This document shows positions 1,661-53,022 of a stretch of 64,000 bases of DNA, piece after piece (positions within the stretch are counted from its first letter, which is position 1; each line of letters starts with the position of its first letter). Source of the DNA: Octopus vulgaris. Its lineage: Eukaryota. The position numbers and the translations under genes are program-made. The stretch lies in NCBI GenBank assembly GCA_951406725.2, contig OX597817.1:167152001-167216000 (forward strand). Direction: 5' to 3'. Below the pieces are notes generated by a model. It did not search any database. It had not been told where the DNA came from and worked only from the letters and a program-made list of their open reading frames with translations.

Positions 1661-2072
1661 AATAGTTATCGCCATACTAATATGGCATTCTTAAAAATAA
1701 GAATAAAGCTGTCGCTGATTAGCTCCATGAAGCCATCGCCTCAAGCTAGCTACTTGACACACAAACTGCGTCCGTTATTAAACCTTCGAACAGGGGAGGT
1801 CAGCCGCTTCAACCTGCTAGTCCGACAGCTACAGACATGTTTCAGGGTTGTTGCCCCTTCTCAATGCAGCGTAGTCAGACCTGCAGGTGTCGCTACTGAC
1901 CGTCTCCGTTCGAAGATTCTATTTACCTAGTTACGGTGGAATACATCCACTTGTTTTCAATAATAGAAATATTAAAATTACTAGCTTGAGGCGATGGCTT
2001 CATGGAGCTAATCAGCAACAGCTTTATTCTTATTTTTAAGAATGCCATATTAGTATGGCGATAACTATTAAT
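1661..2072. repeat. Fold-back element, ~90-bp inverted arms around a hammerhead-containing spacer
   Basis: 1661-1749 is the near reverse complement of 1981-2069. Confidence 0.9.
1828..1870 (-). ncRNA. Minimal type I hammerhead ribozyme (U3-A8 variant)
   Basis: GCUGCA UUGAGAA GGGG-CAACAA-CCCU GAAACAUGUC UGUAGC: stems I/II close, palindromic stem III ACAUGU, GUC triplet. Confidence 0.8.
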
Positions 2073-2405
2073 TTCCAGAAACGCTGTCGTAATCTCTTTT
2101 AAAGAGACTTAGTAATTTTAATATTTCTATTATAATATTTATGTTCGTGTATTTGAGCCGACATTGAACTTTCGAACCATTGTCTCATCCGGAACTTCAA
2201 CGCTCTTATCCAAAAACTCACAGCTCGTTAAAGGAAACACATATTGATATGTACGTCATTCATACCAAGTTTTAGTAGCGGAAGAAATCCTGATCTGAAT
2301 TCCGTATTGTAATTAAGTTTTAGATTAATGTTATATTCTCTTATGTTTCTTATAATATATTTGTTTTGCAAGATTTTTGATGTGAAATCGTGTGTTGAAA
2401 CAGAT

Positions 2406-2825
2406 ATTGTTGTATTTCGGAATGGTCATTTTGCCAGTTTAGCCAATAAAAACACACGCACTATATATTTGGTGTTACTTTGCTTCAGCGTTATTCATTT
2501 TTTACATTCATCTTAATCTTATTTCGGGCAGTTCTTTCGTCACACTTCTGTGACCTCATCAGTGGTCCTTTGCTTTCTTCTTTCTTATTTGTGTGTCTCT
2601 CCTTACTAAAATGGCTGACCGTTATTAAGGAGACACACACAAATAAGAAAGAAGAAAGCAAAGGACCACTGATGAGGTCACAGAAGTGTGACGAAAGAAC
2701 TGACCGAAATAAGATTAAGATGAATGTAAAAAATGAATAACGCTGAAGCAAAGTAACACCAAATATATAGTGCGTATGTTTTTATTGGTTAAACTGGCAA
2801 AATGACAATTCCGAAATACAACAAT
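2406..2825. repeat. 200-bp-arm palindrome with 20-nt spacer, carrying CTGATGA-stem-GAAA
   Basis: 2406-2605 vs 2626-2825 near-perfect inverted repeat. Confidence 0.95.
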
Positions 2826-2995
2826 TTCTTATAATACTTTCTTTTATAAATGGTAGAAATTTAATTCGTTAGTAACTTATATCTGATTTATACTACCATT
2901 TCTGATATTGTTAGTTCACCCAAAGATGTATGCGTGGCCGTAGTTCTATGACTGAAACCAGCAAAAGATTTTTAAAATGGATAAAATTCTTATAC

Positions 2996-3181
2996 CTCGT
3001 AGAAAGAGAGAATTCCTTTTTCGCTGCTGTATCTCCCCATACGACCTCCTCCCTCAACGGGTGCAAACAGTCCGTGTATCGACGGGTTAGCTAATGTGAA
3101 ACTCATTCCATATGTAGGAATGCCTACAATAAGTTTGGATTTCGGAATTCCGACATCAAGCCAGTATCGGATTGACCAATC
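2996..3181 (-). CDS. GH18 chitinase coding exon 7 (DWSIRYWLDVGIPKSKLIVGIPTYGMSFTLANPSIHGLFAPVEGGGRMGRYSSEKGILSFYE)
   Basis: KLxxGIPxYGxSF and GxLxxYE motifs; tttag acceptor, gtataa donor; 186 bp, phases 0/0. Confidence 0.96.
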
Positions 3182-3439
3182 CTAAAAAATTAAATAGAAA
3201 AATAATATTTACGTTTACGAATTTGTGTTGCAAATATATACACATAAGCACACATGCGAAACAGATAGACAAGCACACACACACACACACACACACACAC
3301 ACACACACACACACACACATGCACGCACACACACACGCATAAATACAGACGGAAAAGCATGTGCATATAAATATAAACATCTCAAAAGAACAGAATGGAC
3401 TAAGCGGAGCAGGAGCACACACGAGGACAGAAAGTGTCG

Positions 3440-50700: not shown

Positions 50701-51954
50701 TACGTGTTTCAGTCATTTGACTGCGGCCATGCTGGAGCACCACCTTTAGTCAAGCAAATCGACCCCGGGACTTATTCTTTGTAAACCCAGTACTTATTCT
50801 ATCGGTCTCTTTTGCCGAACCGCTAAGTGACGGGGACGTAAACACACCAGCATCGGTTGCCAAGCAATGCTAGGGGGACAAACACAAACACACACACACA
50901 CATACATATATATATATATATATATATATATATATATATATATATATATATACATATATACGACAGGCTTCTTTCAGTTTCCGTCTACCAAATCCACTCA
51001 CAAGGCATTGGTCGGCCCGGGGCTATAGCAGAAGACACTTGCTCAAGATGCCACGCAGTGGGACTGAACCCGGAACCATGTGGTTGGTTAGCAAGCTACT
51101 TACCACACAGCCACTCCTGGGCCTATGCAAACACACTAACACAAAGCAAAACTGTTAAGAGACAATCGCAAGATTGCTGGATTCGAATATGACGCAGTAT
51201 TTGCCACGGTTTCCTGCTATCAGAGTTCAAATCCCGTCTAAGTCTACTTTACTTTTCATCCTTTTGGGACCAAGATCGATAACATGTACCAATCCAGCAA
51301 GGAAAATTGGTGGAACTATAAACAACATAGGATTGGATATGTTGCAGTACCTGCTGTTGCTGTTGAGCGAAGCGGTCTTCGTCCCAGAGCTCGCAAGATG
51401 GGAGAAGCCCGAATCGTGGTCCTTTGCTATTCGTAAGACCCGCAGAAGAGAAAGCAGGTCAACCCTCGACACCGAGAGCATCGACGGATGGATGAATGCG
51501 CATCCAGGTTCAGCGGTTGCGTAGGAAGTCGGGGACAAGAAACAGGAAGAAAGAGTGTGAGAAAGTTGGGGCGAAAGAGTACAACAGGGGTTACCACCAT
51601 CCCCTGCCGGAGACTCGTGGAGCTTTATGTGTTTCCGCTCAATAAACACACACAACGCCCTGTCTGGGAATCGAAACCGCAATCCTCCGACCGCGAGTCC
51701 GCTGTCCTAACCACTGGGCTATTGCGCCTCCTGCAGTACCTGCTGCAATGGTGCTAAAAGCTCTCTCGATCCACGTCCACAAGCTTTGGCTTAGGATAAG
51801 CATTTGTAGTGTGAAGACGGAGGAGTCGCATGAATGGGCAACAGTCTGTCTTCTTCATAAAATATTGTCATTGGGAATAGACAGAGAGAAAAAGGATTTT
51901 CTATGTATGTGTGTGTATATATATATATATATATATATATATATATATATATAT

Positions 51955-52148
51955 ATATACCCATTAAGGACTGAACACGAAAAGTGGACAGTCAACATGC
52001 TAGATATAGACGTCAAATCGCCATTCTCCACAAAAGATTATGTTCTCAAATCAAACTCAGCATAATCTTTTGTGGAGAATGGCGATTTGACGTCTATATC
52101 TAGCATGTTGACTGTCCACTTTTCGTGTTCATTCCTTAATTGGTATAT
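51955..52148. repeat. ~88-bp-arm palindrome between (TA)n tracts
   Basis: 51955-52042 inverted vs 52061-52148. Confidence 0.9.
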
Positions 52149-52393
52149 ATAAATATTTTAATCTTCGGATTCTTTTTTTAATATGCTAGACCTCTGGTTT
52201 TAATTGATAAATATCAATTTCTACCCTTAATTAATTTTATATATATATATATATATATATATATATATATATATATATATATATATATATATATATATAT
52301 ATATAAAGAGAGTTTACGAAAAAAACAAGACAAAGACAGGTGGTGTACAAAACAAACAGTTGTATTAGTATAACGCTCAGGAATAGAAAAAGT

Positions 52394-52429
52394 CTTTTAC
52401 GTTTCGAGCCTACGCTCTTCTACAGAAAG
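52394..52429 (-). ncRNA. Minimal hammerhead-like motif (CUGUAGA core)
   Basis: CUUU CUGUAGA A GAGC-GUAG-GCUC GAAAC GUA AAAG. Confidence 0.6.
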
Positions 52430-53022
52430 GGACACAGAAAAAACAAAGAGAGAAACAAGGAGAGAAAAAAATGTGTGTAGTGGCTAACGATCTATCATGT
52501 ATATATACATATACATACATACATAAATACATATATACATATATATATATGCATGCATACCATTTACTATGGCTGCTGGGTCGAATTATATGCGTATAAA
52601 GTAGCATTCAGGATCGGAGAAAAATTTCTGGGAGTACCTAATGTCTTTGTTCTGAATATCGCCGGTATGTGATTGTGTATTTGTTTACGTTTACTATGTG
52701 TTGTATGTATAGGACATCATGATGAGGGGAGTGTCAATTTTAAGTATTTGATATGTCTAATAATATTAATTGGCGCGTCTCCGTAGATGGACTTCTGTGT
52801 ATCTTTGTAAACTTGCATAATTATTATCTTCTATGTACATTTCGCTAGAATTTTAATTCGTCTTTTAATATGCCATTGTATGCTTTATTTTTATTTATTA
52901 TAACTATATTTATTTCTCTTATTGTAACAAATTTATACTAAATGTTTTAAGCGTTAACTCAAGGTGTTATATGCAAAATTTATATTTTTATATGATATAT
53001 TAATATTTATCTTTATGATATA

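Follow-up and report, generated by a model that had tools for sequence, protein, structure and literature searches.

Hammerhead ribozymes in an Octopus vulgaris genomic window: truncated ends of Penelope-like elements and tandem retrozymes likely copied in trans

A stretch of the Octopus vulgaris genome of 64,000 nucleotides (contig OX597817.1, forward-strand positions 167,152,001 to 167,216,000; hereafter the window) carries hammerhead ribozyme folds in short elements, which raises the question of what these elements are and which enzyme copies them. The original prediction saw in them seven or more independent mini-elements, all non-coding, mostly inserted in or beside (TA)n and mobilised in trans. 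Eight of the nine families of the window fall instead into two groups: four are 5'-truncated ends of coding Penelope-like elements (PLEs), split evenly between the Neptune and Hydra types and comprising those at 11782, 12750/52394, 13831/14264/25800 and 30474; the other four (1828, 23645, 24701 and 30061) are tandem retrozymes without coding capacity, with units of 351-555 bp. The reading in which these retrozymes, next to the four coding-PLE-end families, are copied in trans by the reverse transcriptase (RT)/GIY-YIG protein of a PLE is considered likely, with a probability of about 0.83.

Hammerhead folds and their families

The insertions and stumps of the window, assigned to families F1 to F9, are the following:

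1658..2133, both arms: F1 retrozyme, of the family with 359-bp units; the minus arm (1658-1984) contains a U3-A8 hammerhead at 1828-1870, predicted to cut after 1834, and the plus arm spans 1981-2133; direct repeats of 13 bp flank the insertion at 1647 and 2130
2358..2829, head-to-head: F2 insertion, absent from the original prediction, with a hammerhead core in both arms; 12-bp flanking direct repeat around it
11679..11894, minus: F3, 3' end of a Neptune-type PLE; hammerhead 11782-11816 with a family-wide U4C core
12464..12620: decayed F5-like stump with a small palindrome and no complete hammerhead
12658..12845, minus: F4, 3' end of an F3-related PLE; hammerhead 12750-12785, two core changes in this copy
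13801..14426, head-to-head: F5 (Hydra-type PLE end), U4C cores; short-end arm 13801-13898 (minus), tRNA-type SINE at the centre (13899-14230), long-end arm 14232-14426 (plus)
23624..23850, plus: F6 retrozyme stump with a canonical minimal hammerhead at 23645-23685; older family of ~351-bp units, identity near 90%
24471..25229, both arms: F7 retrozyme with (TA)n on either side, from a family of 493-bp units that are 99% identical; the minus arm (24471-25032) exceeds one unit and terminates at the long 3' end, and the plus arm (25029-25229) terminates at the short one; the hammerhead, at 24701-24806, is canonical and predicted to cut after 24708
25765..26031, head-to-head: F5 subfamily; canonical CUGAAGA hammerhead 25800-25860 in the minus arm, longer tail on the plus arm
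29778..30311, plus: F8 retrozyme flanked by (TA)n runs and just short of a full 555-bp unit; hammerhead at 30061-30131
30345..30813, head-to-head: F9 pLTR ends of a Hydra-type PLE; short-end minus arm with hammerhead 30474-30537, plus arm with a long tail
42651..42727, minus: F4 3' stump without a hammerhead, adjoining (TA)n
52306..52499, minus: second F4 stump; hammerhead 52394-52429 with a family-wide A6U core

The fold is present at all 11 of the 11 coordinates originally named, and every hammerhead family is multi-copy. A type I descriptor (CUGANGA or UUGANAA core with at most one mismatch, stems I and II, self-complementary stem III and UH) yields 9 matches in the window against a mean of 0.2 and a maximum of 1 in 60 local dinucleotide shuffles, a null that is flattering since the descriptor was devised after the sites were known; the excess over shuffled sequence that had been foreseen is thus present. 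Strict cores give 5 matches versus 0.017 in shuffles, and relaxing stem I to 3 bp recovers 10 of the 11 sites together with two weak extras (null mean 0.47, maximum 3), 12750 being missed by the descriptor because of its two core changes (CUUUAGA). Beyond the window, the flanks (188 kb) contain 18 matches and arbitrarily chosen regions totalling 50 kb contain 2. The hammerhead density is therefore not peculiar to the window, which would represent a sample of a genome-wide population of hammerhead-bearing elements.

The probability that these motifs are chance folds in AT-rich repeat DNA is close to nil. Such an explanation could draw on the post hoc nature of the descriptor, on local folding z-scores that are weak in most of the 8 sites folded, and on the Rfam hammerhead models, which give no match either in the window (up to E=10) or in six loci (gathering score). 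It is refuted by the shuffle comparison (9 versus 0.2) and by the flank counts (18 versus 0-1 in unrelated flanks), and it is also at odds with the fixed position of the hammerhead within PLE ends and with the palindrome swaps (CATG, CGCG or CCGG). Covariation in the U3-A8 group, whose rows were pre-selected by a pairing descriptor, is equalled in 0 of 500 shuffles, and that in the F9 group is not significant. The hammerheads of the window are real.

The core that was ascribed to all of them applies only in part. CUGANGA/GAAA/UH with three stems is found in F1 (as the U3-A8 variant), F6, F7, F8, F9 and at 25800. Non-canonical cores characterise F3, including 11782 (U4C in 25/25), the F5 subfamily of 13831 and 14264 (U4C in 28/30 for F5) and F4, including 12750 and 52394 (A6U in 25/30). 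Core changes at the U4 and A6 positions reduce activity according to PMC3088659, in which A6C was tested and A6U was not. As for F2, both window copies are short of two bases at the cleavage triplet. No coding link was found for this family, whose shared upstream sequence ends in (AAT)n; a 5.3-kb pair followed as a coding lead proved to be a plain duplication.

Coding families and non-coding retrozymes

No PLE protein is detected in the 64-kb window by tblastn, in agreement with the absence of a Penelope RT noted at the outset, and the Penelope link that had been suspected emerges from longer genomic copies, in which coding frames lie upstream of F3, F4, F5 and F9. An RT plus C-terminal GIY-YIG frame precedes the pLTR in F3, F4 and F9 (tblastn and motifs), and the EN part only in F5. 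Loci L148, L151 and L013 continue into a GIY-YIG frame, L006 and L015 are likewise coding-link copies, and L287 and L289 extend to RT and EN. Locus L295 has a pLTR-ORF-pLTR organisation between TA runs, in which a 700-nt GT..AG intron is present in the downstream pLTR and absent from the upstream one. Partial tandem pLTR, inverted truncated copy and tail are found in F5 and F9; the partial tandem is also seen in F3 (L289). Long copies of F3 have a ~3.5-kb CA-rich 3' UTR and those of F4 a ~1-kb pyrimidine-rich UTR. Against Pfam, the F3, F4, F5 and F9 fragments give no match, the only frame matched being the intact 781-aa RT-GIY-YIG frame of a Neptune family, which exists in many copies and whose 3' ends lie at (AT)n in 13/14 loci; the only Hydra ORF followed from end to end is broken. 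It is very improbable that all families are independent non-coding mini-retroelements: every piece in the window is indeed short and non-coding, and the window is devoid of PLE protein, but long F3, F4, F5 and F9 copies run into RT or GIY-YIG frames and the 5' ends of PLE-family copies vary continuously, which refutes that explanation for these four families.

According to their motifs, the coding families can be assigned to two clades. Compared by eye with Craig et al. 2021 (PMC8557442), F9 frames resemble Hydra-clade PLEs in DKT, an RWK-like motif, a CxCX5C linker, CxxC, CxH and the lack of CCHH, as well as in a canonical hammerhead and (TA)n targets, and F5 does so on the EN side only; the F9 element is larger, at ~5 kb versus generally <3 kb for the members reported, and has both a 700-nt pLTR intron and a long UTR. 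F3 and the 781-aa elements share with Neptune-clade PLEs DKG, a GxKF-like motif, a CX4CxxC linker, a CCHH-type EN, TA targets and a tail, although F3 is unlike them in its multi-kb CA-rich 3' UTR and two-armed insertions are rare among the sampled copies of the 781-aa family.

The notion of non-coding elements mobilised in trans fails for F3, F4, F5 and F9; F1, F6, F7 and F8 are non-coding and likely mobilised in trans. The latter consist of tandem non-coding units with one type I hammerhead each (in F6, the tandem structure is seen in only ~3/25 loci), with a longest Met-ORF of 48-102 aa, GC of 0.35-0.42, circular fold z of -4.3 to -7.2 (40 shuffles) and no opposite-strand hammerhead in the four retrozyme loci. 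They match the animal non-LTR retrozymes described in PMC7229834 and in a 2026 preprint (bioRxiv 10.64898/2026.07.22.740005): the units are non-coding, tandem and equipped with a single type I hammerhead each, GC stays below 45%, the circles predicted from them are strongly self-paired, and PLEs co-exist with them. Two unit lengths (359 and 351 bp) lie within the 150-450 bp reported there, whereas 493 and 555 bp are larger, and the arrays differ in being head-to-head with two fixed 3' ends at (TA)n. The words 'inverted' and 'microsatellite' are absent from the main text of PMC7229834 and, in the accessible part of the preprint, are not used for retrozyme arrays. The traits of plant LTR retrozymes (type III, LTR pair, PBS/PPT, 4-bp TSD) are replaced here by type I topology and tandem units, with no LTR pair. 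Among sequencing records that contain the retrozymes, none is listed as RNA; four guessed-RNA runs contain F7 as contigs, one of them a 523-nt piece closing on itself, and they were not used as evidence because contigs cannot tell a circle from a tandem transcript or DNA.

Insertion anatomy and the mobilising enzyme

The long inverted repeats, initially taken as structures of the elements, correspond instead to two separately truncated arms made at each insertion. Two fixed 3' ends exist in F1, F5, F7, F8, F9 and the intact Neptune family, and three retrozyme families (F7, F8 and F1) adjoin (TA)n, often as head-to-head arms. Among loci selected solely by the short 3' end, the other arm terminates at the long end in 42/44 resolved loci of F7, 22/23 of F8 and 18/18 of F1, that is, the pairing is nearly strict; selection by the long end gives a short partner in 13/16 (F5) and 8/10 (F9 group), and in some insertions of F5 and F9 both arms end long (L140 and L165 among them). 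The two-armed share is 50/65 in F7, 23/53 in F8, 19/29 in F1, 16/27 in F5, 10/29 in F9 and 1/29 in Neptune. TA follows the 3' end in 25/30, 23/25 and 28/30 similarity-picked loci versus 163/2120 background windows, so that (TA)n targeting stands in general, with the exception of the 1828 insertion (and of that at 2358-2829), whose site is AT-rich, not (TA)n, with direct repeats of 13 and 12 bp.

This arrangement is the "tail" signature of PLEs, which was not found for retrozymes in the literature searched. A purified PLE protein has been shown to cleave the two target strands and to extend each of them, initiating at two internal sites by which the tail is defined (PMC11167929), and this PAc/Poseidon system, together with the inverted pLTR with a tail (PMC3846280), is alike in the two starts, the AT-rich target, the extension of both strands and the one-arm tail; here the pattern is counted on non-coding retrozymes. 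PMC3846280 put forward an antisense template, whereas the spliced F9 arms point to a sense one: 16 of 30 F9 copies are spliced, 10 unspliced and 4 short, and 16/16 spliced copies extend ≤29 nt upstream of the junction. Many short F9 stumps are likely cDNAs whose template was the spliced 5' leader and whose synthesis was primed at the pLTR copy upstream. Regarding the hammerheads, those of PLE pseudo-LTRs (Cervera and de la Pena 2014, PMC4209133) share the extra base between 9 and 10.1, the palindromic stem III, the U3-A8 variant, the many families per genome, the mostly single truncated copies and the opposite-strand pairs 100-700 bp apart; unlike them, young PLE families of the octopus carry U4C and A6U cores throughout the family, and stem II is long (30-70 nt) in many motifs.

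In the proposed mechanism, the enzyme would cleave a (TA)n or AT-rich target on both strands, and both 3' ends would be primed on sense RNA, each at one of two internal start sites, after which the two cDNAs would stop early and join at their 5' ends. Multimeric or circular RNA, in line with arms that reach several units, would serve as template, in F7 probably alongside linear RNA cleaved by the hammerhead. The two-armed pattern would be easier to reconcile with Hydra-type proteins than with the intact Neptune family, which is abundant.

Retrozyme units have no meaningful homology to six PLE regions (best match 16 nt), and the trans driver is therefore inferred from end structure alone. This lack of homology, together with the LINE clades reported as active in an octopus genome (PMC13282606), could speak for a microsatellite-targeting LINE, yet the PLE ends of F5 and F9 in the same genome show the same pair of fixed 3' ends, the same head-to-head arms and the same tail on one side, and published PLE anatomy (PMC3846280, PMC8557442), which also agrees, describes these features as unseen in non-LTR elements, which leaves a LINE improbable. 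It is also unlikely, if slightly less so, that the tandem units are satellites grown locally by unequal crossing-over from a PLE end and not RNA-copied as arrays, an idea of local growth suggested in the 2026 preprint. Units are more alike within arrays than between them (mean 1.3 versus 3.5 differences, 56 units), which is also what local homogenisation produces; however, the arrays are dispersed and 98-99% identical, diverge both ways from a junction with variable 5' starts, stop at two fixed 3' points against TA and, as in L367, carry array-specific variants shared across inverted arms. Copying by a PLE enzyme is hence preferred.

Predicted cleavage and implications

The 5' ends of F7 provide a possible record of the ribozyme at work, since 36/115 lie just 3' of the predicted cleavage site versus 6.5 expected, a pile that may reflect in vivo cleavage. 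No pile at the cut site is found in F8 (2/76) or F1. An apparent one in F8 was a BLAST query-edge artefact, gone with phase-shifted references, as were eight F7 arm ends at -250, and piles at +55 (F9) and +65 (F1) arise from subfamily divergence. A competing explanation, plausible at somewhat under even odds, is RT stalling or microhomology joining at the folded hammerhead: the edge of the pile is at +4, not 0, the region is AT-palindromic, F8 and F1 are without a pile, and a second F7 pile (15 ends at 200-224) adjoins a strong hairpin, so that stalling also shapes ends. On the other hand, stem I of F7 has only 8 A-U-rich pairs, while the longer, GC-richer helices of F8 and F1 give no pile, and in 12 loci with both arms these stop at the pile despite starting 132 and 237 nt away. 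In the PAc system, RNA-seq revealed no ends at the cut site (PMC11167929; PMC3846280). A broader reading, entertained tentatively and at well below even odds, regards the 493-bp arrays of F7 as a genomic record of the whole retrozyme cycle, in which the hammerhead cuts in vivo, circles are reverse-transcribed repeatedly (whence multi-unit arms with private variants in common) and a dimeric Hydra-type enzyme primes the two strands of a (TA)n break at two fixed and distinct RNA sites, giving one arm with the short end and one with the long end; young coding PLE families spreading with impaired cores, the hammerhead would matter more to the parasites than to the PLEs.

That hammerheads exist and abound in animal genomes was already known. 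The enzyme link of animal retrozymes had only been proposed, the 2020 paper (PMC7229834) and the 2026 preprint (bioRxiv 10.64898/2026.07.22.740005) arguing from co-occurrence and phylogeny, and in the retrozyme insertions described here the end signature of PLEs can be counted. The nearly strict pairing of short with long ends, like the spliced arms, constrains how PLE inverted repeats are formed, and with the predicted start sites and cut site mapped to the base, the mobilising enzyme and in vivo cleavage become matters of direct assay.

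Hammerhead motifs in the window and the genome

The original prediction described type I hammerhead folds, and such a fold is present at 11 of the 11 sites. With a descriptor composed after the sites had been seen (CUGANGA or U3-A8 core, one mismatch permitted), 9 motifs are found in the window versus a mean of 0.2 (maximum 1) in 60 block-wise dinucleotide shuffles; loosening it to a 3-bp stem I recovers 10/11 sites and two weak extras. The enrichment over shuffled sequence extends to independent flanks (18 matches in 188 kb versus 0-1 per shuffle, five shuffles), and arbitrary regions hold 2 matches in 50 kb versus a mean of 0.3. 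All three counts exceed those of the shuffles, so the motif is real and occurs throughout the genome; the window is not unique, its density being at most a few-fold above average. No Rfam hammerhead model matched the window or six loci.

The proposed families are indeed multi-copy, each having 887-3487 candidates in the 2.8-Gb assembly (about 30 large contigs), which are first-look matches and not to be taken as copy numbers. Exact 3'-end-plus-TA junctions number 58 for F8, 175 for F7, 158 for F1, 385 for F5 and 1044 for the F9 group (F1-F9 being our labels for hammerhead-bearing families), and reversed-control patterns give 0 matches. Since 160 distinct strict hammerhead strings from all fetched loci, often having a long stem II and a 6-nt palindrome, form 83 groups, the genome is judged from these strings to hold dozens of additional families.

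The interpretation of these elements as all non-coding stood only in part: F3 (hammerhead at 11782), F4 (12750 and 52394), F5 (13831, 14264 and 25800) and F9 (30474) are ends of coding Penelope-like elements (PLEs), their long copies extending into GIY-YIG or RT sequence, and four families are retrozymes:

F1 (hammerhead at 1828): retrozyme, unit 359 bp
F6 (23645): retrozyme, unit about 351 bp
F7 (24701): retrozyme, unit 493 bp
F8 (30061): retrozyme, unit 555 bp

No long ORF was found in these units, each of which has a single hammerhead, on one strand only, and predicted circular folds with z of -4.3 to -7.2. A stretch of 55 nt surrounding the long 3' end is common to F1 and F6. Other features of the window, whose elements probably lie in or beside a chitinase-like gene, are:

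17931-18248, minus strand: glycosyl hydrolase 18 (chitinase-like) exon
39354-41099: tandem array of 11 copies of a 159-bp unit at 98% identity, with no hammerhead match
3440-4193, 28488-29042, 34893-35746, 49450-49863: short tandem arrays of SINE-like units, 184 bp each
54611-58260, minus strand: frames of 455 and 479 aa, which we take to resemble the endonuclease and ORF1 of an L1/Tx1-type LINE
51960-52143, 31001-31143: fold-back palindromes adjoining (TA)n in which no hammerhead occurs within the window; they are probably stumps from further PLE-type families
13899-14230: tRNA-type SINE at the exact centre of the F5 head-to-head pair, adjoining a duplication of 26 bp; it may have inserted later, at the tip of the palindrome, or result from a template switch

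Coding PLE families and spliced copies

As originally noted, no PLE protein match was found in the window. Elsewhere, a GIY-YIG frame lies 5' of the F5 element end in three loci, 2/30 F4 loci cross a pyrimidine-rich UTR of about 1 kb into GIY-YIG or RT sequence, and of three extended F3 loci, two continue into RT and EN and one into a short EN match, beyond a CA-rich UTR of about 3.5 kb. In L287 and L289 this 3' UTR consists chiefly of CA/CATA repeats, and clipped F3 copies could give rise to microsatellites of this kind. Judged by motif, F9 and F5 would be Hydra-type and F3 Neptune-type, with F4 related to F3. In F9-group subfamilies (L528-L557) the final 140 nt are common, stems II differ, and stem III alternates between two palindromes via a G-U intermediate.

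In another Neptune-type family, many copies keep a 781-aa RT-GIY-YIG frame open, and the family's 3' ends lie at (AT)n in 13/14 loci with the same two-end pattern. In this young PLE (L091-L103, e.g. L094:844-6060), for which 531 exact short-end junctions were counted, an upstream, overlapping frame reaches up to 479 aa, and the hammerhead-like motif is of the U3-A8 kind, its stem I being poorly paired.

The F9 locus L295 reads (TA)n, pseudo-LTR with hammerhead, ORF, UTR, pseudo-LTR with hammerhead, (TA)n; a 700-nt GT..AG intron, whose 3' limit is just 5' of the hammerhead, is missing in its upstream pseudo-LTR and retained in the downstream one. The intron has been removed in 16 of 30 F9 loci and kept in 10, and the other 4 are too short. 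None of the 16 spliced copies extends more than 29 nt upstream of the junction, their ends lying at a presumably initiator-like TCATT, and both arms are spliced in the four insertions whose two inverted arms reach the junction. From these copies we infer that many short F9 stumps derive from the spliced mRNA leader with the hammerhead uncut, and that sense RNA would have templated both arms. In its splicing pattern, F9 also displays the RNA intermediate.

U4C occurs in 25/25 F3 and 28/30 F5 central matches and A6U in 25/30 F4 matches; all parsed F7 and F8 units (not deduplicated) have the canonical core. Because these changes are family-wide, U4C and A6C hammerheads have low activity in published tests (PMC3088659, which covers core variants) and PAc insertion in vitro is not blocked by hammerhead mutants (PMC11167929), F3, F4 and F5 have likely spread with weak ribozymes.

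Two-armed insertions and the F7 5' ends

Loci were taken in list order by exact 3'-end pattern (F7 70/175, F8 53/58, F1 30/158), and arm lengths are unbiased because this pattern alone was used. An inverted second arm accompanies the first in 50/65 F7, 23/53 F8 and 19/29 F1 resolved loci. The partner stops at the longer of the two 3' ends in 42/44 F7 (the exceptions being one near the short end and one fragment), 22/23 F8 and 18/18 F1 cases, nearly always against TA. Choosing loci by their long end gives a short partner in 13/16 F5 loci (three overlapping or duplicated loci removed) and 8/10 F9-group loci (one removed), so the coding Hydra-type ends mirror the retrozyme pairing; a few long/long pairs also exist. 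The intact Neptune family is two-armed in 1/29 loci (within 1.4 kb). Arms exceed one unit in 37/115 F7 and 11/76 F8 cases, and private variants are common to the units of one array, inverted arms included. In a nine-unit F7 arm (L366) two variants recur at three-unit spacing (units 4/7 and 6/9), which may point to a trimer template or to a subsequent duplication.

In F7, the 25-nt bin immediately 3' of the predicted cut contains 36/115 5' ends versus 6.5 under a flat hazard, ends that are not independent, coming from 24 loci of which 12 give both arms; first arms only place 20/65 in this bin and 3 in each neighbouring one. The edge of the pile is at +4 relative to the predicted cut. The pile may reflect run-off at in vivo hammerhead cleavage, to which we give a probability of roughly 0.6. 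Stalling instead of cleavage is a serious but somewhat less probable explanation; a second, smaller pile adjoins a strong hairpin. No pile at the cut was found in F8 (2/76), F1, F5 or the Neptune family.

Relation to known elements

Abundant and diverse minimal hammerheads in PLE ends, with U3-A8 cores and opposite-strand pairs, are already described in PMC4209133. PMC8557442 and PMC3846280 report inverted pseudo-LTRs, a tail on one side only and targeting of (TA)n, and two internal start sites are demonstrated in PMC11167929. Animal retrozymes were defined, and PLEs named as candidate driver, in PMC7229834; a 2026 preprint (bioRxiv 10.64898/2026.07.22.740005) draws on distribution and phylogeny in support of a PLE origin, and suggests that amplification was local. 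The available text of the octopus repeat annotation (PMC13282606) lacks the words hammerhead, ribozyme and retrozyme, and in the incomplete literature collection that was searched, neither cephalopod retrozymes nor two-armed retrozyme arrays targeting TA are reported. All parts belong to known kinds; what the analysis adds is a PLE signature counted on retrozymes, together with the pile of F7 ends and the evidence from spliced arms, all of them open to direct testing.
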